Origin: a phage
Length of the DNA: 64,000 nt
Assembly: GCA_025677605.1 (NCBI GenBank)
Contig: GCA_025677605.1_4110.1
Strand: one strand, 5' to 3'
Positions 3,962-58,332 of the stretch are shown piece by piece. The notes under the pieces were generated by a model, which was given only the letters and a program-made list of their open reading frames with translations, ran no database searches and was not told the origin of the DNA. Position 1 is the stretch's first letter. Each line of letters begins with the position of its first letter. The translations under genes and the position numbers were made by a program.

Positions 3962-4753
3962 TTAGATTTCGAATACCAATTTAGGATTGTAATCGAAATT
4001 CTCACAAGCTCCACTATAAGATTCGTAACCTCTTGGATTACAAATGATACGTGTCTTACCGATGTGGTAATCAAAGCTACTATGAACATGACCATGAATC
4101 CAAACATCAGCACCCAAATCTTCAATGTACTGATCCATGTCTGAACAGTAACAACCATTCAGTGAATCGTTTTTATATTTTGGTGAAACACTTTGAAAAC
4201 TCGGTGCGTGATGGGTAATCACGATGACCTTGAAATCATTATCCTGCATTAAGCGTACTGTGTCAACTGAATTTTTGATAAATTGTTTATCTTTGTGATG
4301 CATGAACTCAGTATCTTCTGGTGTCAGTTTCTTACGCCAAGGCTCGGATGTTGTTCCATGACGGATGTGTTTATAATCGTTCATCTTCTGACGAGCATCA
4401 AACTTCGTCATGGAATTACCTTTGTCAAAGTCTGTCCACAGAGTACTACCAACGAGCAAAACACCATCCAGCCATACAAATTTGTTTTGCAAAAAGATGA
4501 AATTAGGAAACTCATCTTGTATATCGGACAGTACTTGATGCGTTTTGTAAATGTTCGAACCGTAGTACTCGTGGTTGCCAGGAACCAGTACTACATTCTT
4601 GAACTGCTTACACAGTGATTCGATGCCAGTACGATAACGGCTGCGTTTAACTTCATCGAAATCCCCTGCAATGATCAGTACTGTGTCACTGTAATCACCA
4701 CTGTGGAGGTAATCAGTGCCACCGTGCACATCAGATGTTACGACAAATTTCAT
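3962..4753 (-). CDS. calcineurin-like metallophosphoesterase
   Basis: Motifs SDVHGG, GDFDE, GNHEYY, HHAP, HGHVH; track ORF 3962..4825 trimmed to Met (MKFVVTSDVHGG) at 4753 preceded by GGAGG. Confidence 0.8.
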   Translation of the reverse strand: MKFVVTSDVHGGTDYLHSGDYSDTVLIIAGDFDEVKRSRYRTGIESLCKQFKNVVLVPGNHEYYGSNIYKTHQVLSDIQDEFPNFIFLQNKFVWLDGVLLVGSTLWTDFDKGNSMTKFDARQKMNDYKHIRHGTTSEPWRKKLTPEDTEFMHHKDKQFIKNSVDTVRLMQDNDFKVIVITHHAPSFQSVSPKYKNDSLNGCYCSDMDQYIEDLGADVWIHGHVHSSFDYHIGKTRIICNPRGYESYSGACENFDYNPKLVFEI

Positions 4754-4772
4754 AATTACCTCCAATAAATGT

Positions 4773-6191
4773 TTAGCCAAGTGATTCAATAATACTGTTT
4801 GAGAAGACCTCAACTGCACTATCACGAATTTCTAAGATACGAGTATAATCGTCACAAGTGTTTTTGTCAAATCTAAATTCAATAAACACTGGTAAGAATA
4901 GTGATGGTTCACCAGTACGCTTATCATATACTACGTCATTGCACTCAATTGTAACAACTTTGCCAATGAGTTCTTGCATTCTTTCCCAAATGGTTTTAAA
5001 TGTCCATTCAGCATCTTTCTCTTTAATGCCTGTTCCTACGCTTACTTTTAGTGTACCACAAGCACTTTCCAGTTGTAAAGAACCAAGCATACCTTTACGC
5101 TTACCTTCACCTTCATTGAAACCAACAATACGCAAGTCCAGTTGCATTTTCAATTTCATTTTCAACTGCTTAGGAGAAGTATGAGATTTCCAGATACCAT
5201 CTTCACATTTCAGTACTGAACCTTCTTCACCTGAACTCATGAGTTCAGAGTTGTAAGCAAAGGCTTCTTTGAGATCCTTCACCTTACGATATCCAACCAT
5301 ACGCACGAATTCACTACCTAATGCATTGATTGCACCTTCAAGAATCTCGCGACGTTCCTTACGTTTCACATCCCAGATACCAGCACAATAAGCATCATAT
5401 GGCACTACATCCCAGAGAACGAATACAGTACGCATTGCTTCGTTTTGGGTGATAGTATCCTTACCAGCTTTCTGAATGATGCCGTTACCAGTTGTACGTG
5501 GAAGAATAGTTTCCCCATCAGTATCCAGTACTAAACCCTCGCCCATAAAGACTACACCACTACTGAAACGTTCATCTGTACTTTGAATATGATGAGCAAG
5601 TCCAGCCATTTCAGCATCACGACAACCGAGGAAGTCATAAATCTTACCATTACGGGAAGTGGATGTTAATGATGCATTGATAACAACGTGGTTCAAGTAC
5701 TGACCATCCATCTTAACTTCAGCAACGGCATAACCATAATCTTTGAAGTTGATGTTCTTAGCAGTTTTCTTGTCAATCAATGAACAACGCATATAAGGTT
5801 CATCTTTAATAAAGCCTTTACCGAATACATCATTACAGTTCTTTTCCTGAATACCACAATCAAGGTTCTTCGTGAGCATTTTACGGAGAACTTCCTGATC
5901 ATCTTCAGATACGGAACCCAGTACTGAAGCAATGAAATCACGCCCCGTATTACCCGTCACACCACGCTTATAGATGCATTCTAGCTTATCAATAGCTTCA
6001 TCTAACGTCATATGTTGATACACGTCAGCAGCGTCTGGTAGCTTCTTATAGCCACTTACGATAGTAGGGTCTAGCGTATATTTCAGTACTTTTTTGAGTG
6101 TTTCATTGTTTTTGTTTTCTTCAAGGATTGCTTTCTTACCAAGTGTACTTGAAGTCTTTTTGATTTGTTCCAGAATTGCTAAAATGCTCAT
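4773..6191 (-). CDS. 30: ATP-dependent DNA ligase (T4 gp30-like)
   Basis: N-terminus ILAILEQIKKTSSTLGKKAILEENKNNETLKK resembles T4 DNA ligase N-terminus as I recall it; KxDG adenylation motif in VAEVKMDGQ; 472 aa. Confidence 0.9.
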   Translation of the reverse strand: MSILAILEQIKKTSSTLGKKAILEENKNNETLKKVLKYTLDPTIVSGYKKLPDAADVYQHMTLDEAIDKLECIYKRGVTGNTGRDFIASVLGSVSEDDQEVLRKMLTKNLDCGIQEKNCNDVFGKGFIKDEPYMRCSLIDKKTAKNINFKDYGYAVAEVKMDGQYLNHVVINASLTSTSRNGKIYDFLGCRDAEMAGLAHHIQSTDERFSSGVVFMGEGLVLDTDGETILPRTTGNGIIQKAGKDTITQNEAMRTVFVLWDVVPYDAYCAGIWDVKRKERREILEGAINALGSEFVRMVGYRKVKDLKEAFAYNSELMSSGEEGSVLKCEDGIWKSHTSPKQLKMKLKMQLDLRIVGFNEGEGKRKGMLGSLQLESACGTLKVSVGTGIKEKDAEWTFKTIWERMQELIGKVVTIECNDVVYDKRTGEPSLFLPVFIEFRFDKNTCDDYTRILEIRDSAVEVFSNSIIESLG

Positions 6192-22742: not shown

Positions 22743-22971
22743 GATAAATTATATATCCAGTATATGAAAGACTCGGTGATGACCTCACTGTACACAGTTT
22801 ACCTTCAGTACTGCACGAAGTCAAGAGTTTTTTGCATTCAGTACTGAAGCCATTGATACCACGGCATTTAATGTGCCATAGTTCTATACCGTCTAGTACT
22901 GAAAATGTTTCGTATGATCCTAAAATACACTCATCCAATATGATAGAAGTGATATCATTTATTTCAGACAT
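22681..22971 (-). CDS. hypothetical protein (96 aa)
   Basis: Minus-strand ORF. Confidence 0.45.
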   Translation of the reverse strand: MSEINDITSIILDECILGSYETFSVLDGIELWHIKCRGINGFSTECKKLLTSCSTEGKLCTVRSSPSLSYTGYIIYLGSDHLFYLTKENYFDKYKQ

Positions 22972-23257
22972 GTAAATTGTCCAGTAAGTTGATTACATCA
23001 TCGTGTGTAAGATCAGTATCAGTACAAAGGAAGTTCATAATGAACTGCATTTGTGAATAAAGATTAGCGAGAAATTCAACTTCATCCAGACGATATGAAT
23101 AACCCATTGGAACCACTTGACATGTCCATTCACCTAGGGTTTTGTTCGCAACAACCGATACAATAGTGTTACCTTTGTATTCTACTTGGATATTACGATA
23201 TCCTGAACTTTCATTTTGTTCCCATAGTACTGGGTTAGTTTTGAAGAGTACTGTCAT
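22964..23257 (-). CDS. hypothetical protein (97 aa)
   Basis: Minus-strand ORF, ATGA overlap. Confidence 0.5.
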   Translation of the reverse strand: MTVLFKTNPVLWEQNESSGYRNIQVEYKGNTIVSVVANKTLGEWTCQVVPMGYSYRLDEVEFLANLYSQMQFIMNFLCTDTDLTHDDVINLLDNLHV

Positions 23258-23793
23258 GGTTCTTTCCTCATGTATTTTATTACATCTTTAAAAAGTTTTA
23301 TTTTCAAGTCATTATCATCACCTGGTAGATAAGAACTGAAGCTTTCAAAATCATCACGCTTAGCAAAAGAACGCATTTCAGTTGAACTGTACTTGCTAAC
23401 GGTTCGGTCTATACCAGCTTGGATTGCTTTTATATTACGAAAATTATACAAGTTTCCATTGTATCTGTCAAGTACATTTTGAAAGTTTTCTATCCTGTCT
23501 GAACCACATATGAAAAGAACATCACTGTACTTACCATTCAATTCCTGCATAATATCAAAAAGATTATCTTCAGTACTGATGTTGTGTTGAATTCTTGGAT
23601 AGAAACCCTCAGTGTAATACATTTTCAATTCAGGTGGTAATGGATTCTTAATACAATCTTGTGTAGTACTAAGGTATATTTTTAAATCAGCATTGTATTG
23701 TTCTTTCATCGATACGGCTTTATCAAAAATTAACCCATGTCCCAAATGCACTGGATTTATACGTCCATACGTTACTATACAAGTGTCTTTCAT
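23254..23793 (-). CDS. cytidylyltransferase-family nucleotidyltransferase (NMNAT/PPAT-like)
   Basis: N-terminal GRINPVHLGH (HxGH) motif and C-terminal SSTEMR (ISSTxIR-like) motif. Confidence 0.65.
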   Translation of the reverse strand: MKDTCIVTYGRINPVHLGHGLIFDKAVSMKEQYNADLKIYLSTTQDCIKNPLPPELKMYYTEGFYPRIQHNISTEDNLFDIMQELNGKYSDVLFICGSDRIENFQNVLDRYNGNLYNFRNIKAIQAGIDRTVSKYSSTEMRSFAKRDDFESFSSYLPGDDNDLKIKLFKDVIKYMRKEP

Positions 23794-24311
23794 ATATTCT
23801 TCATCACCTGACCGATAGATTTAAGATGGTTGATTTTAGCTGGTGTTAAGTACTTATCCAGTACTATTAAACAGCTAGGGAATGGAGCACTATCAGTCTT
23901 TTTATCTGGTTCTTCAGGGATGCCAAATTTTAAACGTCCTTTAATAAAACAAATACAGTCACAAAGCTTAGATGCATATTCCTGAAATGCAATTGTATCA
24001 GTACGTGATGGAACAAGTATCAGTACTGTTGCACCATTATTATAAGCATCAACTGCCTTAGATAGCCAAGGTTTCAGGTCGCTGTATGGTGGGTTAAGAA
24101 AGACGATATTGTTTCCCCAATCCTGTGAAAGACTATCATCTTCCGGTGTAAAAAACTTGTCACATAATGCAGTTTCTTTAACACATGCTGCATCAAGTGT
24201 GAATCCCCAGACTTCATCCAAATCTTCAAAGAATTCCTTTGGAGTAGTCCAGTTATCTTTTCCAGTACTGAAGTGTACCGAATGTTTTTTCGAAGCATCC
24301 TTCTTCGACAT
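23790..24311 (-). CDS. DNA N6-adenine methyltransferase (phage Dam-like)
   Basis: NPPY catalytic motif (VFLNPPYSD) and N-terminal DNWTTPKEFF block typical of phage N6-adenine MTase family; GGAG RBS. Confidence 0.75.
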   Translation of the reverse strand: MSKKDASKKHSVHFSTGKDNWTTPKEFFEDLDEVWGFTLDAACVKETALCDKFFTPEDDSLSQDWGNNIVFLNPPYSDLKPWLSKAVDAYNNGATVLILVPSRTDTIAFQEYASKLCDCICFIKGRLKFGIPEEPDKKTDSAPFPSCLIVLDKYLTPAKINHLKSIGQVMKNI

Positions 24312-24327
24312 AATACTTTCTCCATTA

Positions 24328-24942
24328 TTAAATTTTACTTATTGTTTCTGTTATCAAACCATTATCTAAATCATATTGTAAAATATCTATTCTACGCTTT
24401 ATTCCATTAATAACTCTTAAATCGACAACAGAACTGTATTTTTCTATGATTTCATATAGATATTTTATTTTCTCCCTTTGCCATACTTGATGAGCTTCTT
24501 CAGGTGTGTGAAATAACCCAAAGTTTCGTATTTGTTTTCCAAATTTACATATTGCAGGTCTATATTTTTTGGAACACCTATCATCATTGAAATACGACAC
24601 ACCAATATAATTATTACCTCTATTTCCGTCAATTATACAACTGTTAATTAAACCAGGTATAAAGGCACACGTTTCAGGTGAGTAAATATCTTTATCTCCC
24701 CCAATTATATCTTTATCTAATTGATATCCCTCAATATAGTGAAGTTTAAACCATTTTTTGAAATTGGAATAATATTTCCATTCATCACAAACTGTTGTGT
24801 TTATGTATGATAAATTCTTATCAGTTCTTTTAAGACTATAGCAACGCCTAATTATTCCAGTCCATTTATCATATATATGATAATCCAAACTTGATGGTAT
24901 GGAGTCGCCAGGAATGTCATTAATACCAAAATTATATATCAC
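24328..24942 (-). CDS. hypothetical protein (204 aa)
   Basis: Minus-strand ORF. Confidence 0.5.
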   Translation of the reverse strand: MIYNFGINDIPGDSIPSSLDYHIYDKWTGIIRRCYSLKRTDKNLSYINTTVCDEWKYYSNFKKWFKLHYIEGYQLDKDIIGGDKDIYSPETCAFIPGLINSCIIDGNRGNNYIGVSYFNDDRCSKKYRPAICKFGKQIRNFGLFHTPEEAHQVWQREKIKYLYEIIEKYSSVVDLRVINGIKRRIDILQYDLDNGLITETISKI

Positions 24943-25499: not shown

Positions 25500-26138
25500 T
25501 ATTATTCCTTTTTAGGAAACATCAAATAATGTACTCGATGTTGATTTCGTTTGCACTCAATCAACATCAGTAGAATTAATTCATCGCTACGCTCTGAATA
25601 ATTCTAATAGTACTAAATGGTTTTAATTAATATTGACGAGGTTTGGAAGAGCATATTTCATCCCCCCACTGGGGGAAAGAATTAAAATTTGACGCTGGTG
25701 GTCTTCACATATTTCATATCACGAATTCTCTTAACGAGGCGAAAGCGGGTTGCTCTGTTTCTCTCTATCGCGGTTCTTGTAGCAACGGTCGTCGGTCTTA
25801 AACATCCCGACACATAATACGAGTACCATATGAACAGTACTGGTATTTGATTTCACCAAATTTTGGACGCAACTATCTTGTACAAATAGTTGACCGCAAT
25901 TTCTAATGAAATCTCCCTTAGCAAATCTGGTAAGGTGCGATCCTTATATGTCTATCTAGGAACTCTCTGTGTGCTTATCGGAGTTCTTTATACAGCCGCA
26001 TTGCCGTGAGGGGTTCATAATATGCCCACATCTGACGGGTTTCATCTGCTGTTCGTACTGAAAGGACTACTCATCTACCCTCTACATTTTCGAGTGGATT
26101 AGGCTCTTAATCATTTCCATATGGAACCTTTCAGGATT

Positions 26139-26172
26139 AAAAAAAAAGAGTGACAAAGATATATTGCCACTC
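26139..26172 (-). terminator. rho-independent terminator
   Basis: Hairpin GAGTGGC...GTCACTC (one G-U pair on minus-strand RNA) followed by nine U. Confidence 0.6.
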
Positions 26173-26192
26173 ATCATTATATCACCAAGAAT

Positions 26193-51430: not shown

Positions 51431-51787
51431 CTATAGATTGAAATAGTACTGAACAGTCTTGTGCTTATCTTGAGTTAATTCTATCATGCACTTCGCAGAG
51501 TATTCTTTCATGATATTCTGAATACCAATAACTTCATCTAGTGTACAAATATATTTCTTATCGAACACTAATGACTCCTGAAATAGAGTCGCCTCATCCA
51601 TTTCTGTATAGTCCAGTAGAGGTTCATTAACACCACCACCCACTCGACCGTAATCAATAAAAGAAAATCCATTTGAGGTGTACTTAATATATTGGTCCAA
51701 CGAATGATTGGTATCACCCTTAACGAGATTACAATAGAACTCAACCTTTTTGTAGAAAAAACTGTGAATAGCAAAATCATTGCTCAT
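51431..51787 (-). CDS. FQ-family paralog, hypothetical
   Basis: Motif EATLFQESLVF. Confidence 0.55.
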   Translation of the reverse strand: MSNDFAIHSFFYKKVEFYCNLVKGDTNHSLDQYIKYTSNGFSFIDYGRVGGGVNEPLLDYTEMDEATLFQESLVFDKKYICTLDEVIGIQNIMKEYSAKCMIELTQDKHKTVQYYFNL

Positions 51788-52000
51788 AATAACCTCTACT
51801 ATAATTAATAAGGTAAACTACAATATAAGGAGCACGTTCGGCGGCGGGGTATTTTTTTGTTTAAGGAAACATGAACTGTACTCTGAAAAACACAATATAA
51901 AATTTTATATTAAACATATACCTTAACATGTTTTTCAGCGAAAATTTTTTTGACCCCCCAAAACGCCCCCAAAAACAAGCCTATATTTATCATTTTAAAA

Positions 52001-52567
52001 TTACCCCTTTTCCGCGACCTTATCAAACACGTACTGTATGTACTGATTCAATGCAATGAGATCGATATCTCTGTCAAATCTCAACGTTAACTTCTCTGTC
52101 AACTCCCCGAAGGTATCATAATAATGCTTAACAAAATAACGATATCGTATTGAATTATAATCGTGCAATGTACTGTACTGAAACACTACATCAGGACTAT
52201 ATGGCATCAAATCAATAAGCTCACTTACTTTTAATTTCTCATTTTCGCCATTATTTTTAACTGTTATATATTCATTTGAACTGAACCATGCACATGATAC
52301 ATCTGAACAAATTGATGTTGTACTGTAAAATCTATCTGTACTCACAAATAATACACTATGTGATTTGTTGGATTTTCTTTCGTAAATCGATAAATCCGAC
52401 ATAAGCGTAATGATTGGTTCGTGTCGAAATTTATTATGCTGGTACGTTTCCTGAAACGCATTCGGATTTTTGTAAATCCTATCTACAATTAAATACAACC
52501 CCTTGATGTATTCTAAATCATCTTCTATCGCTTTGCATGTACTTTCTATGTCCTGAAGGTCCAGCAT
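52001..52567 (-). CDS. FQ-family paralog, hypothetical
   Basis: Motif PDVVFQYSTLH. Confidence 0.55.
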   Translation of the reverse strand: MLDLQDIESTCKAIEDDLEYIKGLYLIVDRIYKNPNAFQETYQHNKFRHEPIITLMSDLSIYERKSNKSHSVLFVSTDRFYSTTSICSDVSCAWFSSNEYITVKNNGENEKLKVSELIDLMPYSPDVVFQYSTLHDYNSIRYRYFVKHYYDTFGELTEKLTLRFDRDIDLIALNQYIQYVFDKVAEKG

Positions 52568-53103
52568 TACTCCCCCTTAATCTCTTTGAGATCTTTTACT
52601 AACCTATCGTACCACGTTAAAGCTAAAAAGAAATTCGTTTTCACATTAGCACGTAATACATTATATACTTGCTGCACCTGTAAAACATAAGGATCTTGTA
52701 CTAAGGACTCCTGAAAATATTCTTCAGGACTCAGGATGTTAGGATTCAAGGTTGCAATATCAACGTGCTTTGTTAAACCAAAAAAGGTTTCTTCCTCTCT
52801 CTTGCTCATATCCAAATAACGAATCCAATTCACTGGAGCGAACTCTTCAGATGCTGATGTAGCCGATGTAATAGCATTGAACAAAAGACAATACTCTAAC
52901 TGCATCTTCTCACCTACAGCGTGCATTACCGTATCTCTCCTGTAATACACAATAGAGGGATACTTTTCAATATCGCTCTTAGGCTCAAGCCATCCTTCCT
53001 TGTGCTTAGGATAGATGTGGTCAAAATCCCCAGCCTCAAACGCCTGTACGATTTTTACTAAATTGTCAGCGAACTCGTACTCAAAATGTTTGTGCTGGAT
53101 CAT
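52567..53103 (-). CDS. FQ-family paralog, hypothetical
   Basis: Motif PEEYFQESLVQ. Confidence 0.55.
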   Translation of the reverse strand: MIQHKHFEYEFADNLVKIVQAFEAGDFDHIYPKHKEGWLEPKSDIEKYPSIVYYRRDTVMHAVGEKMQLEYCLLFNAITSATSASEEFAPVNWIRYLDMSKREEETFFGLTKHVDIATLNPNILSPEEYFQESLVQDPYVLQVQQVYNVLRANVKTNFFLALTWYDRLVKDLKEIKGE

Positions 53104-53134
53104 CTAAATCACTCCCGTCTTTGTTGTATTGTGT

Positions 53135-53164
53135 GTTATTGCATGTTATTGCATGTTATTGCGT
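53135..53164. repeat. three tandem copies of a 10-bp unit (GTTATTGCAT x2, GTTATTGCGT)
   Basis: Direct tandem repeat in the 62-bp intergenic gap between two array genes. Confidence 0.7.
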
Positions 53165-53165
53165 A

Positions 53166-53804
53166 TTATAACACAATCTCTTTTAACTTCAAAATGAAAT
53201 CTTCATATACTTTTATCTGAAAATGCGGACTCTGTGCACTGAAACTAAACCCAGGTTCAATCAATTTCTTGTACTCATTTGCATATTTGCACAACTTCAG
53301 GATTTCGGTAGGGTCCACCATATCCTTCTGTACTAAGGACATTTGAAAAAGCACTTCCTCTACACCCTCGTACTCTTGACCTGCAATGTAACATATGTCA
53401 TCGTCTAACGATAATGATATGAACGTCTTTGTACTTATTACATTACCATCTTTTGAAACACCATAATCTGCAACTGAATCCACAAAGGAATCCGGCTTAG
53501 ATGAACCTGCTATGTCGCAAATGTACTTGTCAATGTATGTGATGTTATTGTTGTTATCGAATATACCAAATGCTAATGACGTGTCAAATACTTCCCTGAA
53601 ACCAATTCTGTCACTACCGATAACTAAAACTAATTTACCACAGGATGCACTGTATCTGGATGCGGAATCAAATGGAATCTCCAATTTTGAATTCTCAGGG
53701 AAAATAGCATTGAACTTCTTTAGCATTTCAAACATATAAGGAACATGAGGCTCCATGAACTTCATCACCTCATACGGTGAAGCATTTCTGGGAAAATTAT
53801 GCAT
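53166..53804 (-). CDS. FQ-family paralog, hypothetical
   Basis: Motif EEVLFQMSLVQ. Confidence 0.55.
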   Translation of the reverse strand: MHNFPRNASPYEVMKFMEPHVPYMFEMLKKFNAIFPENSKLEIPFDSASRYSASCGKLVLVIGSDRIGFREVFDTSLAFGIFDNNNNITYIDKYICDIAGSSKPDSFVDSVADYGVSKDGNVISTKTFISLSLDDDICYIAGQEYEGVEEVLFQMSLVQKDMVDPTEILKLCKYANEYKKLIEPGFSFSAQSPHFQIKVYEDFILKLKEIVL

Positions 53805-54366
53805 ATGTACTTACCCTTAAATTTTCGAAATCCCATACATCACTGATTGTACCATTGTGCCTGTAATCATAATATTGTACTAATACATTATACAATAACT
53901 TCAACGATACAAATTCATGATTCCACGGGGCTTTATTCTCATGAACACATTTAGAGATATAAGGTATCATATATAAAGCAACCATCTCTAATGGTTCATG
54001 TACACATTGCTTTTGAAAATATTCTTCTTCTTGCATACAATGCTCAGGAATAATTAGATCACCATGTTTACCGAAGACATATGAACCTACTGTGTATTTT
54101 TTCACATCGCAAGCGAACCATATTGTACTATCCGAAACAAATGGAATGATACCATTATTGTTTGCAATGTACATCATATGGTAAGAGCTATTTGACTTGT
54201 TAAATACCTCTATACTTTTAATATTACTACAAATCGCGTATTCAATACAATCAATAATCTTATCTTTAAATACACCAATTTCATTGAATGTCATTGCTTT
54301 CTGTACTTGCGATGTTTGCGATGTTTGCATGGGGTTCTCCTTAAAAATGTTCAGGTATATTAGCAC
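53797..54366 (-). CDS. FQ-family paralog, hypothetical
   Basis: Motif EEEYFQKQCVH. Confidence 0.55.
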   Translation of the reverse strand: MLIYLNIFKENPMQTSQTSQVQKAMTFNEIGVFKDKIIDCIEYAICSNIKSIEVFNKSNSSYHMMYIANNNGIIPFVSDSTIWFACDVKKYTVGSYVFGKHGDLIIPEHCMQEEEYFQKQCVHEPLEMVALYMIPYISKCVHENKAPWNHEFVSLKLLYNVLVQYYDYRHNGTISDVWDFENLRVSTYA

Positions 54367-54410
54367 CGATTCGGTACTGTGTCAATACCAAAACGAAAAA
54401 AGCCCATATC

Positions 54411-54908
54411 TTACGATACAGGCTCGGTTGGGTAAAAGGACTCATATACATTTTTCATTTGCTGGAAATAAAAATATACATGATTCTTAAGCACACCATT
54501 CTCATAAAGCATCTTGTATATTGCGTAGAAAAAGATATCAATTTCTTCATGTATTGTACTGTACTGGAACCACAACTCCGGTGTCAAGGGTTCTGGACTG
54601 TATTTGATTTCCAACAAAGCATCATCCATTGGCTTATCACGTCCTGGATACATATACCAAAGGTCATCTCTTTCCAGACGAAGATCATCTTCATCAGGAT
54701 ATACATTGTCAGGAGCAAAATTTAAAAAACTAAAAAGCACTTTACCTGAATTTGATTCTTCTAACTGATTGTTAATATAATCATATTTGTGATTTATTGA
54801 AGCATATCCTTTTCCTTCATATGCTTTCATTATATTGTATACACCTTCAATGTACTTAACGTACTGTACAGCACTCTCTAAACTAAATTCCACTTTACAT
54901 TTTTGCAT
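54411..54908 (-). CDS. FQ-family paralog, hypothetical
   Basis: Motif PELWFQYSTIH. Confidence 0.55.
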   Translation of the reverse strand: MQKCKVEFSLESAVQYVKYIEGVYNIMKAYEGKGYASINHKYDYINNQLEESNSGKVLFSFLNFAPDNVYPDEDDLRLERDDLWYMYPGRDKPMDDALLEIKYSPEPLTPELWFQYSTIHEEIDIFFYAIYKMLYENGVLKNHVYFYFQQMKNVYESFYPTEPVS

Positions 54909-55279
54909 AATAAAATAATCTCAACTAAAGCAAGAACTGTATTGAATTCCACTATACTTGTAATTCCCTGAAGGTACATGTACTTTGCTATTACATATTT
55001 CTGTACTAAATTATCATTCTTCTTGAATTCATCAAACGCATCATTACAACGTGTCATGTATTCTGTACTCAAAAATATCTTATGCATCTCTAATGCACTC
55101 TGATAATATGCATACAACTCACGAATATCTATACTACGTAAATCACGTTGTTCGTACTTGTGATACGGAATAGCTTCAATTTCAATATTATAAAACCATT
55201 CTGTTAACTTATTAATATCAAATGTATTATTGTACTTCGAGGTCATAATATTTCCTTTCCCATTCGGATACATGGGCAT
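54878..55279 (-). CDS. hypothetical protein (133 aa)
   Basis: Minus-strand ORF; family motif not evident. Confidence 0.45.
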   Translation of the reverse strand: MPMYPNGKGNIMTSKYNNTFDINKLTEWFYNIEIEAIPYHKYEQRDLRSIDIRELYAYYQSALEMHKIFLSTEYMTRCNDAFDEFKKNDNLVQKYVIAKYMYLQGITSIVEFNTVLALVEIILLCKNVKWNLV

Positions 55280-55535
55280 TAAAATTCATAACAGCTTTCT
55301 GTATCTTTTTTAATAATAACACATCATATCCACCTGTGTCAATCACTAATTGCTGTTGAAACAATTCTTCGTCGGATAATGTATTGAAATCTACAAAATA
55401 ATCTGTGACTTCGTTATCATTTAAATGTGCCATGTACCAACCTGAACTACATGAATAAATCAAATTCCAACCGTCTTCATCGCCTTCTAATTCAACATAA
55501 ATCATATCTTTTGTATAAAGCATTCTATACTTCAT
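55227..55535 (-). CDS. FQ-family paralog, hypothetical
   Basis: Motif DEELFQQQLVI. Confidence 0.5.
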   Translation of the reverse strand: MKYRMLYTKDMIYVELEGDEDGWNLIYSCSSGWYMAHLNDNEVTDYFVDFNTLSDEELFQQQLVIDTGGYDVLLLKKIQKAVMNFNAHVSEWERKYYDLEVQ

Positions 55536-56040
55536 AACTATATCCTTGCATCAAAATATCATAAACTGCTTGAATGTCAGGAACTTTTATATAAAATTTA
55601 AAACCCTTAATTAAAGGATTCGCGTACAATGAACTGAATAACTTTAGATAATGCATTTGACGAGGACTATATAATAACGATTTCTGAAATAATTCAGCAC
55701 TACAATCTGTACTAATATCAATTAAATCAATTCGTTCTTCTACTTCATCATCTTGTTTCAAATCATAAAAGAAATAATCGTTTGTGTTTACCCACAAATA
55801 CCCTTCTTTATTTTCGTATACAACAGGAGATGTTTGTACCGGATTGGCTTGGGTAAATGCTGCAATACAAACGTTAACATTCCCTGCATTATTTGCATTG
55901 TGAAACATAAACGATAATTTACCATGCCTATCTTCTATGCGTAATTCATCTATATCAATGTACTTATGTATAGGATGATTATTTTTGAGCATAAGCATTA
56001 TTGTACTAATCTTGTGCGTTAATAATTCAATTTCATTCAT
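55525..56040 (-). CDS. FQ-family paralog, hypothetical
   Basis: Motif SAELFQKSLLY. Confidence 0.55.
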   Translation of the reverse strand: MNEIELLTHKISTIMLMLKNNHPIHKYIDIDELRIEDRHGKLSFMFHNANNAGNVNVCIAAFTQANPVQTSPVVYENKEGYLWVNTNDYFFYDLKQDDEVEERIDLIDISTDCSAELFQKSLLYSPRQMHYLKLFSSLYANPLIKGFKFYIKVPDIQAVYDILMQGYSYEV

Positions 56041-56046
56041 ATATTA

Positions 56047-56430
56047 TTACCTATAGCATTTGAGCACTGTAACCAATCCCTCTGCATTCTTGAAATGCAT
56101 TAAAGACAATGAACTATCAACGTACTGCAATGATATAATTACATCCTGTTCTGTGTGTTTGAATAAAAATTCCTGTACCGAATTCGTACCATAATACATG
56201 TACTTCGTTGCTTCAATCTGCAAATAAGGCACTTCTGTATTGTGTAAAAAGATATTGATTATTTCATTATTCTGTAATCTGCAATCAAATTTGTATGTTT
56301 CATATAACGGTACATCCGATGATGCCTGTACTGCCTGTACTGCCTGTGCTGCATGAGCGGTGTTTATAAATGATAAAAACACAAATGTTAAAATGAATAT
56401 GATTTTATTGAACATGTTTTGTTTCCTCAA
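56047..56430 (-). CDS. secreted protein with N-terminal signal peptide
   Basis: Basic N-terminus, hydrophobic core IIFILTFVFLSFI, AHA-AQ cleavage-like site, then AQAVQAVQA repeat. Confidence 0.55.
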   Translation of the reverse strand: MRKQNMFNKIIFILTFVFLSFINTAHAAQAVQAVQASSDVPLYETYKFDCRLQNNEIINIFLHNTEVPYLQIEATKYMYYGTNSVQEFLFKHTEQDVIISLQYVDSSLSLMHFKNAEGLVTVLKCYR

Positions 56431-56624
56431 TAATGTTTGTACTTGTGTAAAATTCTATCCTGTACTGAAAGATGCTCAAATATAATTACACTCAAATAAT
56501 AATTGTAATCATTGATACCACCCCTCAAATGCATATTGTAATACAGCTTAATACTATCTAATAATGAATCCTGTAATGCATGTAATGCATTTAATGTCTT
56601 TGCATCTATCATCATCTTTCCCAT
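56427..56624 (-). CDS. hypothetical small protein (65 aa)
   Basis: Minus-strand ORF, ATGA overlap. Confidence 0.45.
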   Translation of the reverse strand: MGKMMIDAKTLNALHALQDSLLDSIKLYYNMHLRGGINDYNYYLSVIIFEHLSVQDRILHKYKHY

Positions 56625-57013
56625 TTAATAGGGTATTCCGTTTCATTCACTACATACGACATAATCCATCCGTAATGGATAGGATGATATTTGTCTGAAT
56701 CAGGAATAAAATATAAAGCTGTACTGGGATTATAACTGAAGAAATCCCTCTCGTCAAATGTTAATCTGGCTAACTTAATTTTCCTTGGAATTGCATGAGG
56801 ACGAACTGCATTCTTTACACAGAATATACCATCTTTGTATTTTGGTTCGATAACACCCAATGCACTCTGGATTAACTCCTGAAAGACTAAATTGATTTGT
56901 GCAAATGAATCCTTGTTGTTATGCATTTCGTGCCATAAATCTCGTCTTGCATTTAACATCATTATTACTGGTCTAAGATCCTGTACTATTGTTAGATTCT
57001 GCATTGTATTCAT
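56612..57013 (-). CDS. hypothetical protein (133 aa)
   Basis: Minus-strand ORF. Confidence 0.5.
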   Translation of the reverse strand: MNTMQNLTIVQDLRPVIMMLNARRDLWHEMHNNKDSFAQINLVFQELIQSALGVIEPKYKDGIFCVKNAVRPHAIPRKIKLARLTFDERDFFSYNPSTALYFIPDSDKYHPIHYGWIMSYVVNETEYPIKWER

Positions 57014-57230
57014 TTATCTCATTCTGTAACTTAACAACCAAAATTTGCGTATGAATTTTTCGCTCAAGGTGCTTGATAAATTTCTGTACCATTTCTTCTT
57101 GTACTGATGTACCAAGATAAAATAACATATTAAATTCTGATAATCGCAGAGCAAAATCTTCATCGCCCCCCTGTAAACAAAAATCCCTGTACTTCGATGC
57201 GTACAAATGATGGTTTACATTTTTGTACAT
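56973..57230 (-). CDS. GTNYQ-family small protein (diverged), hypothetical
   Basis: Motif FYLGTSVQEE. Confidence 0.45.
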   Translation of the reverse strand: MYKNVNHHLYASKYRDFCLQGGDEDFALRLSEFNMLFYLGTSVQEEMVQKFIKHLERKIHTQILVVKLQNEINEYNAESNNSTGS

Positions 57231-57433
57231 TTAGACTCCTTTGGTGTGCATACTATCTCTGTTCGTAAAGCCCTTATGTATGCATCAACGAATTGTGGCT
57301 GTGCTCTCGTTCCTAGATAAAATAATAAATCGAACTCTGCCATTTTAACATTAAAAGGATCTGAATCTACATTTCGAATAAACTGTCTGTACTTCAATTC
57401 ATATCCGTTAGGCATCTTCTTGTATACTATCAT
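57215..57433 (-). CDS. GTNYQ-family small protein (diverged), hypothetical
   Basis: Motif FYLGTRAQPQ. Confidence 0.45.
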   Translation of the reverse strand: MIVYKKMPNGYELKYRQFIRNVDSDPFNVKMAEFDLLFYLGTRAQPQFVDAYIRALRTEIVCTPKESKCTKM

Positions 57434-57743
57434 ATTCTATACAATCACCTCTTTTAATCGAATCCCAAACTTCTTTCATCCTCTTCTGTAAACTGCACAT
57501 AATATCTATATCAAACATATAAGGGTCATGAATTAGACTGTACTGAAATAATTCATCTTCCTGCATAAGAGAAAGATCCTGAAGCAACTCGTACTTACCT
57601 AAACTCCTGGGACTCAAATAAGCAAAATATTCTTTACCGTCCTCAAAAACATAATGTACTTCATGATTCATGTACTTCTTGTAATTCTCATGCGTATAAG
57701 CAAATATACAACCGGAATTAATTCGGTGAATGTTGAATTTCAT
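57408..57743 (-). CDS. FQ-family paralog, hypothetical
   Basis: Motif EDELFQYSLIH. Confidence 0.55.
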   Translation of the reverse strand: MKFNIHRINSGCIFAYTHENYKKYMNHEVHYVFEDGKEYFAYLSPRSLGKYELLQDLSLMQEDELFQYSLIHDPYMFDIDIMCSLQKRMKEVWDSIKRGDCIEYDSIQEDA

Positions 57744-57752
57744 ATTAATCTC

Positions 57753-58109
57753 TTATACGTAAATTGGATGAATATTTTGAAGGAAATGCTTAGAAATATT
57801 CATACATGATATCATCTGCCTTTGTACTTCCTTCATCTCTTTGTATGTCAACCCAAAAGAATCATCGTATACTAACATGTACTGAAACTCTTCTTCTTCA
57901 GAGATATCAACTAGATTCGGTACTGCTATCGTATTTTCATATGATTTGATACCTTCTACCCAATAGAAACAATTATCAACTTTATTGTACTCAAATATCT
58001 TAACCCCAGGCCCACCCTGTACATTGGTCAACGCAATGAAACATGTATTCGCTCTTTTTATACAATTGATCTTACGCATTATCGCATTATCTCCATCTCT
58101 CTCCGTCAT
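57753..58109 (-). CDS. FQ-family paralog, hypothetical
   Basis: Motif EEEEFQYMLVY. Confidence 0.55.
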   Translation of the reverse strand: MTERDGDNAIMRKINCIKRANTCFIALTNVQGGPGVKIFEYNKVDNCFYWVEGIKSYENTIAVPNLVDISEEEEFQYMLVYDDSFGLTYKEMKEVQRQMISCMNISKHFLQNIHPIYV

Positions 58110-58332
58110 CGCAAGAGTACTGGTACGTTGTCGTTAGGGTAGGAATCATGTTCGTAATCGGCATATTATTCACAATAACCGTTACGGGCATCATAACCGT
58201 CTCTTTTCTACTCTGTCCTGTCTTTGTGCAATTCATCTTGTGCATTTCATCTGAATCCAGATACGCTAATACAAACGGTGCAATCCCAAGAACAATACAC
58301 AAGACGATAAGGAAATTTAAAAATTTTAACAT
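58087..58332 (-). CDS. small membrane protein (81 aa)
   Basis: N-terminal TM helix FLNFLIVLCIVLGIAPFVLAYL. Confidence 0.45.
   Translation of the reverse strand: MLKFLNFLIVLCIVLGIAPFVLAYLDSDEMHKMNCTKTGQSRKETVMMPVTVIVNNMPITNMIPTLTTTYQYSCDDGERWR

Follow-up and report, generated by a model that had tools for sequence, protein, structure and literature searches.

The window analysed here, a 64,000-nt stretch of phage DNA, carries two neighbouring genes that we interpret as a predicted orphan Dam-family methylase and a stand-alone phage HxGH nucleotidyltransferase, which probably function independently of each other. Escherichia phage A4 (ON286972.1, 355,528 bp), a jumbo myovirus of the genus Asteriusvirus, matches the region around them (22900–24900) at 99.8% identity. 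In that record the methylase ORF is A4_406, labelled 'DNA N-6-adenine-methyltransferase', and the nucleotidyltransferase ORF is A4_407, labelled 'putative cytitidyltransferase'. GenBank thus already has annotations for the two genes, in phage A4 and in relatives, and each falls in a recognised family; as a pair they are ordinary.

The methylase gene occupies 23790–24311 (ATG start, 173 aa) and the nucleotidyltransferase gene 23254–23793 (ATG start, 179 aa), both on the minus strand. ORF coordinates and sequence agree with the 4-nt overlap that the first-pass annotation had placed at 23790–23793. The minus-strand junction reads ...AATAT[ATGA]AAGAC, the TGA stop of the methylase and the ATG start of the nucleotidyltransferase sharing these four positions. 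A second ATGA overlap, at 23254–23257 on the same strand, joins the nucleotidyltransferase gene to the gene downstream of it (22964–23257, 97 aa), which is without a family match. On the other side, a spacer of 16 nt separates the methylase from the upstream gene, whose stop codon is at 24328–24330; within this spacer, 8 nt upstream of the methylase ATG, is a Shine-Dalgarno-like GGAG (24320–24323, minus strand). A conserved multi-copy structured RNA-like element, common to Rak2-like phages, lies 1.3 kb upstream.

Both genes are links in a long, tightly packed minus-strand gene chain. We counted 86 adjacent pairs of annotated genes in the 42 kb around them. Overlaps of exactly 4 nt join 22 of these pairs and 1-nt overlaps join 9; another 18 overlap by some other length, which brings the pairs with an overlap of any kind to 49 of 86. 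The 4-nt overlap of our pair is the default packing here, no more than chance gives in this genome. Since such overlaps are ubiquitous in the genome, the one between methylase and nucleotidyltransferase is not evidence of shared function, and translational coupling was dismissed as a sign of it.

The methylase scores 111.6 bits over residues 16–160 with Pfam PF05869 (Dam), whose cut-off is 28.1 (E 4e-32); it also matches PHROG 111 ('DNA methyltransferase') at 1.4e-56 and the PADLOC 'orphan methyltransferase' (oMTase) model at 2.3e-35. Its NPPY catalytic motif IV falls at residues 73–76 (24084–24095, minus strand; AAC CCA CCA TAC in the reverse complement). The NPPY motif and the membership of the phage Dam family, both pointed out on the first pass, were correctly recognised. 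There were 7,428 homologues in the protein database, with PF05869 present in all of the matches listed; among those listed, the closest relatives from outside the jumbo phages were methylases of Lactococcus and Staphylococcus phages, at 46–48% identity. Single-sequence phmmer searches against PDB sequences gave nothing meaningful, either for the methylase or for the nucleotidyltransferase.

The known systems most like this protein are the phage Dam enzymes of PF05869, those of T1, Stx/VT2 and HP1, with which it has in common the family, small size, the NPPY motif, orphan status and a phage genome as its home. It differs from the Stx- and T1-type enzymes in sequence, at only ~30–37% identity (30.5% over 90% of the query for Stx-phage Dam, ~37% over 64% for T1-like Dam). 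It also scores just under the equivalog cut-off of NCBIfam TIGR01712 (phage_N6A_met; 90.7 vs 97.05 bits), and GATC specificity by orthology is therefore not guaranteed. Stx-phage Dam and T1-like Dam are GATC-specific. Because these characterised relatives methylate GATC, we take it as the default guess and the most likely target of the A4 enzyme, with modest confidence.

No nuclease was found among the four ORFs flanking the pair, nor any Pfam or PADLOC family match, and on this basis the methylase is an orphan, with no cognate restriction endonuclease beside it. A restriction-modification system, for want of a nuclease neighbour, was dismissed.

The nucleotidyltransferase is a member of a phage 'cytidyltransferase' family (PHROG 3041/395; cyanophage T4-GC 190), matching PHROG 3041 at 5.5e-54 and PHROG 395 at 9.9e-26, both of that name. 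A word-indexed homologue search retrieved close jumbo-phage relatives only; the rest came when a profile was run exhaustively against 1.84 billion cluster representatives, giving 3,366 relatives at E ≤ 1e-3, of which 2,239 also passed E ≤ 1e-10. By tblastn the domain is found in 562 phage records, most of them T4-like cyanophages (the total includes 375 Synechococcus, 61 'Cyanophage' and 24 Prochlorococcus phages), and jumbo phages of Enterobacteria, Erwinia and Pseudomonas appear there too. Most of the best 150 of the 3,366 relatives are proteins of 400–1,200 aa that begin with the domain; by position, it is N-terminal in 105, internal in 7 and C-terminal in 6. For 65 long relatives the Pfam content was tallied: PF01467 in 48 (E < 1e-3), DUF5824 in 17 and a Zeta-toxin/AAA_33 kinase in 4.

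The 'cytitidyltransferase' of T4-like cyanophages (T4-GC 190; PSSM2_194 of P-SSM2, and S-PM2) belongs to the same domain family as the A4 protein, the two aligning at 30–39% identity across 82% or more of the protein and having in common the motifs GRxNP..GH, KNPL, GSDR, YNG and S..xR. Two differences stand out. The cyanophage and metagenomic members mostly run to 400–1,200 aa with long extensions, whereas the A4 protein consists of the domain alone; and unlike in those members, the (H/T)xGH motif of the A4 protein opens with His, not Thr. Our literature search found no discussion of the phage 'cytitidyltransferase' family or of DUF5824.

The signatures reported on the first pass, GRINPVHLGH and SSTxxR, are indeed in place. 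The former spans residues 10–19 (23737–23766, minus strand) and includes the nucleotide-binding HxGH signature as H16-L-G-H19; the latter is SSTEMR at residues 136–141 (23371–23388, minus strand), a second signature of the ISxTxxR type. Between them lies a KNPL motif, K49-N50-P51-L52 (23638–23649, minus strand). In family alignments G10, R11, G18 and H19 vary little or not at all, N50 is invariant across the family, and S136 and R141 are likewise invariant. HxGH, KNPL and SSTxxR are kept across 150 diverse relatives, and the motifs of the family as a whole read GR.NP..GH, KNPL, GSDR, YNG, SAG.R and S...R. An AlphaFold (AF2) model (pLDDT 79, pTM 0.76) has a Rossmann-like nucleotidyltransferase fold, matching cyanophage proteins in BFVD at TM 0.72–0.80, and PPAT, FADS, NMNAT and class I aaRS as well. 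The safe conclusion is that this is a predicted, catalytically intact HxGH enzyme.

Its substrate class is less easily assigned. Tested against every NMNAT, PPAT and FAD-synthetase model, the protein exceeded the threshold of none. NCBIfam TIGR00482 (NMNAT) gave 20.2 bits against a cut-off of 112.45, Pfam PF01467 (CTP_transf_like) gave E 0.039 and 14.6 bits, under the gathering score of 21, and Pfam FAD_syn gave a sub-threshold E of 0.015. Thus of the earlier label 'NMNAT/PPAT-like', membership in the HxGH superfamily stands, on signatures and fold; for NMNAT or PPAT in particular, the scores of the models are below cut-off. NCBIfam matches among 34 stand-alone members of the family were to the generic cyt_tran_rel for 24, to NMNAT models for 16, 11, 10 and 5, to FAD synthetase for 5 and to PPAT for 4, every one far under its cut-off.

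The nucleotidyltransferase had been put forward as part of an NAD-salvage pathway with partners elsewhere in the genome, that is, as an NMN/NaMN adenylyltransferase helping to rebuild NAD+ depleted by host defence. We consider this unlikely. The weak NCBIfam matches are mostly to NMNAT (TIGR00482 in 16/34, PRK01153 in 11/34), which leaves NMN or NaMN some probability as substrate and which we counted against our preferred reading. The KVP40 system of NatV plus NadV/Nampt, which related jumbo phages do encode, shares fold superfamily and HxGH chemistry with the A4 protein. The NMNAT models are nonetheless all far under cut-off for the A4 protein, and NatV-type enzymes are of another build, ~350 aa with a Nudix domain and lying beside Nampt; A4 has neither NadM-Nudix nor Nampt. 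By the established pathway, an NMNAT alone cannot regenerate NAD+ from ADP-ribose and nicotinamide, a further count against the NMNAT reading.

The NAD genes of the relatives were located through Klebsiella phage Muenster, to which we were led by tblastn with human NAMPT (a query validated by its matches to phage genes, hundreds of which carry a Nampt annotation). Muenster has a canonical cluster of NadM-Nudix, homing endonuclease, Nampt, Sir2 and Nudix genes, bounded by a Clp protease and a PhoH-like ATPase, its NadM-Nudix showing 37% identity to KVP40 NatV. NadM-Nudix is present also in RaK2, K64-1, Serratia BF, Erwinia SNUABM phages, CBB, GAP32, Yersinia fHe-Yen9, Munch, 7t3, fENko-Kae01 and Escherichia phage EJP2. 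Matches to it totalled 470 records, only 10 of them Escherichia, and Asteriusvirus was absent among the best 60 of the 470 (identities down to ~36%). When the whole A4 genome was searched by tblastn for Nampt/NadV-like partners, none was found, the best E values being 3.2 for Muenster NadM-Nudix, 1.9 for Muenster Nampt and 0.38 for human NAMPT; the positive controls Sir2 (64%), Nudix (52%) and PhoH-like ATPase (80%) were recovered, and Clp is present as well. At the very place between Clp protease and Sir2 where related phages carry the NadM-Nudix/Nampt pair, A4 has just two short hypothetical ORFs. The Asteriusvirus literature that we searched does not mention NAD genes.

The relatives provide a second argument. 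In fENko-Kae01, K64-1, Serratia BF, Munch and EJP2 the small nucleotidyltransferase is kept alongside a dedicated NMNAT of NatV type. As both genes coexist there, the small nucleotidyltransferase is neither required for the NAD pathway nor its substitute. For the A4 genome we find no support for a part of this gene in NAD salvage.

By structure and by profile, the protein comes nearest to phosphopantetheine adenylyltransferase. In a Foldseek search of the PDB with the A4 model the top matches were all PPAT (E 2e-4, TM ~0.5), followed by FAD synthetase and NaMNAT. The best match to PDB for a profile of the 34 stand-alone members was H. pylori PPAT, over its full length (E 1.5e-5) and with KNPL aligned to the KNPM of that enzyme; NMNATs aligned with the profile at the N-terminus only. 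Bacterial PPAT (CoaD) is like the A4 protein in having ~160–180 aa, a single domain and the KNP motif, and PPAT is the annotation given in one related phage record (Turkey3). A CoaD-like enzyme could then boost or deregulate CoA synthesis in the infected cell. We judge this quite improbable: identity to bacterial PPAT is 11–18%, TM is ~0.5, the curated cut-offs are missed and there is no CoA-pathway context. The nearest subfamily moreover varies with the method, among Foldseek, the profile against PDB and the NCBIfam votes. We therefore prefer to place the protein, as a stand-alone HxGH nucleotidyltransferase, in the phage 'cytidyltransferase' family, a large clade specific to phages.

Functional independence of the two genes was judged from the distribution of the pair. 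The order methylase–nucleotidyltransferase is kept in fENko-Kae01 (8-nt overlap), K64-1 (4-nt overlap) and Munch, and also in Serratia BF, with a 39-nt gap and a nucleotidyltransferase only 36% identical. This persistence down to 36% protein identity could reflect functional linkage, and we counted it against independence. The flanks of the pair are themselves syntenic in the Rak2-like clade, however, with an ORF of 176–204 aa upstream and one of 93–97 aa downstream, and RNA ligase and polynucleotide kinase genes further along. For the ORF upstream of the methylase, the fENko-Kae01 record has a virion mass-spectrometry note; there is none for the methylase or the nucleotidyltransferase.

Elsewhere the two genes part company. 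Of 80 diverse IMG/VR loci with a nucleotidyltransferase homologue, retrieved with an alignment of long-form domains, none had a PF05869 gene within 6 kb, and in neither Pseudomonas phage MIJ3 nor Prochlorococcus phage P-SSM2 does a methylase adjoin the homologue. The pairing is conserved solely inside the syntenic Rak2-like clade. Recurrent neighbours in the IMG/VR loci, identified by eye from sequence, were a putative replicative helicase, RecA-like, HAD-type nucleotidase-like and Dps/ferritin-like proteins, and P-loop kinases, which suggests that the nucleotidyltransferase may typically sit in a replication or nucleotide-metabolism context.

The methylase had also been proposed, speculatively, as a candidate modifier of AGTACT. 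The enrichment of this hexamer is real: the window has 185 sites, vs 17.3±4.6 in shuffles, and the whole genome 922, vs 120 expected from base composition, a 7.7x excess that is clade-wide. Within genes there are 751 sites, vs 215±11 after synonymous-codon shuffling, spread over the three frames (371, 127 and 252), and flanking bases extend the motif to CAGTACTG at 224 sites. Excesses of 8–10x were seen in fragments of fENko-Kae01, Muenster, K64-1 and Serratia BF and in the complete A4 genome; MIJ3 and P-SSM2 lacked the enrichment. Two related palindromes, GGTACC and CGTACG, are absent from A4 (0 vs 35 expected each), an avoidance that would be unnecessary were GTAC adenines generally methylated. 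The tetramer GCGC is completely absent as well, a lack common to Rak2-like phages. In the literature we found nothing on AGTACT in jumbo phages, and its mentions in methylome papers were irrelevant.

Two published studies bear on the modification state of such DNA. One reports, with data unshown, that RaK2 DNA yields only to enzymes that Dam, Dcm, CpG and EcoKI methylation does not affect, and that bisulfite sequencing found CpG methylation (PMC3622015); we counted the cutting result as indirect evidence in favour of the methylase reading. In the other, ten type II enzymes were tried on DNA of the Asteriusvirus fEgEco12 and all cut it as predicted (PMC13070987), a point against bulk hypermodification.

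These observations allow one to ask whether the pair forms a site-specific DNA-modification module, in which the Dam-like protein picks out the site, perhaps (C)AGTACT(G) or GTAC, and the nucleotidyltransferase supplies or attaches an activated group, beyond plain m6A. Gene order is kept in A4, fENko-Kae01, K64-1, Munch and Serratia BF; the AGTACT excess occurs in Rak2-like lineages, and MIJ3 and P-SSM2, with the homologue, have neither an adjacent methylase nor the excess; and PF05869 domains are found fused to PAPS-reductase-like nucleotide-binding enzymes too (phrog_33262 match). But the co-occurrence comes from one clade with the whole region syntenic, making it phylogenetically a single observation, and so nothing ties the AGTACT excess to the methylase. 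The association is missing in the 80 other loci, fEgEco12 DNA is cut as predicted by type II enzymes, and the absence of GGTACC would be needless if GTAC adenines were protected. We regard such a module as highly improbable.

We favour instead two enzymes with separate tasks, in a packed Asteriusvirus gene chain from which they are probably co-transcribed, their ATGA overlap mirroring the default gene packing of the genome. The methylase would use SAM to methylate adenines in the phage DNA and may thereby blunt host restriction. The nucleotidyltransferase most likely moves an NMP from an NTP onto the phosphate of a small metabolite, with release of pyrophosphate, and is probably not the NMN adenylyltransferase of phage NAD salvage.

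For the scoring of NAD pathways in jumbo phages, this means that the small 'cytidyltransferase' should not count as an NAD-salvage NMNAT, because the relatives hold a separate NadM-Nudix/Nampt pair and Asteriusvirus is without one. The target of the methylase is worth measuring, since the oligonucleotide biases of the genome are extreme. The nucleotidyltransferase belongs to a very large family, which counts over 3,000 cluster representatives and occurs in hundreds of T4-like cyanophage records, and is a worthwhile biochemical target.

AGTACT is over-represented 7.7–8.6-fold. The excess is still 3.5-fold relative to synonymous shuffles and is present in all three frames, evidence that the word is selected at the DNA level. 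About 19% of AGTACT sites fall outside predicted genes, which make up about 89% of the genome. The sites prefer a preceding C and a following G, giving the extended motif CAGTACTG, and one subset of them is contained in an early-promoter-like repeat, AAAAAGTACTTGCAAACTAAGTTTAAAAGCGTATAAT. Palindromes of the form TTCAGTACTGAA are densely packed in an unannotated 2-kb stretch outside the window, at 4139–6138 of the record for Escherichia jumbo phage A4 (ON286972.1). Within the window, a 6.7-kb stretch (51451–58115) has no AGTACT at all, nor any AGTAC on the + strand. GTAC is nonetheless enriched 3.6-fold there, with 72 sites; in 43 of these the surrounding hexamer is TGTACT, corresponding to AGTACA on the coding strand. 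It is specifically the palindromic form that is missing from this stretch.

A perfect sigma-70 consensus (TTGACA-17 nt-TATAAT, 12/12) was found on the − strand at 23443–23471, inside the coding sequence of the HxGH nucleotidyltransferase gene and oriented towards the downstream small genes. The site could serve as an internal promoter, or the match could be fortuitous.

The NAD-salvage partner genes of related jumbo phages, NadM-Nudix and Nampt, were sought in A4 by comparison with Klebsiella phage Muenster and other Rak2-like phages, the jumbo-phage clade that includes A4. At ~95,200–100,500 of the A4 record, outside the window, the interval from the Clp-type protease gene to the Sir2 gene lacks exactly NadM-Nudix and Nampt, and Sir2-like, Nudix and PhoH-like genes are retained in the phage. 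No Asteriusvirus, the genus of A4, appeared among the best 60 of 470 records matching NadM-Nudix. A4 itself is without this NAD-salvage pair.

An unannotated 693-nt gap (25500–26192), 1.3 kb upstream of the Dam-family methylase gene, holds a conserved non-coding element of ~480 nt (~25623–26120, sense on the − strand). Its nucleotide identity is 67–73% over the whole Rak2-like group (62 records), whereas Rak2-like proteins are only 36–60% identical. Each genome carries 4–5 copies, every one in an unannotated gap; A4 record positions 65083–65776, 125754–126142, 205609–206123 and 320997–321451 are occupied by copies. One copy is syntenic with the methylase–nucleotidyltransferase block in A4, fENko-Kae01, Serratia BF and K64-1. 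The structure that RNAalifold derived from a seven-sequence alignment contains 60 pairs, and compensatory double changes occur at 29 of these. Searches of the element against Rfam 15 gave no match, and a search for tRNAs in it found none. The element is probably a large structured RNA family, previously undescribed.

Besides the Dam-family methylase, the A4 record annotates a DNA-cytosine methyltransferase of 632 aa (A4_120, at 292647–294545, outside the window). CpG methylation of RaK2 virion DNA has been reported (PMC3622015, as data not shown).

GCGC is absent both from the 64-kb window and from the whole A4 genome (355,528 bp), where 338 occurrences are expected from composition and 206 ± 13 after synonymous-codon shuffling. 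It is likewise absent from fragments of fENko-Kae01, Muenster, K64-1 and Serratia BF. AGCGCT, GGTACC and CGTACG are also each at zero, against ~35 expected for each; GATC stands at 0.56 of expectation, CTAG and GGCC are below expectation too, and CGCG is depleted alongside GCGC and CCGG. The absence of GCGC could reflect restriction avoidance, or it could be the means by which a phage nuclease distinguishes phage from host DNA.
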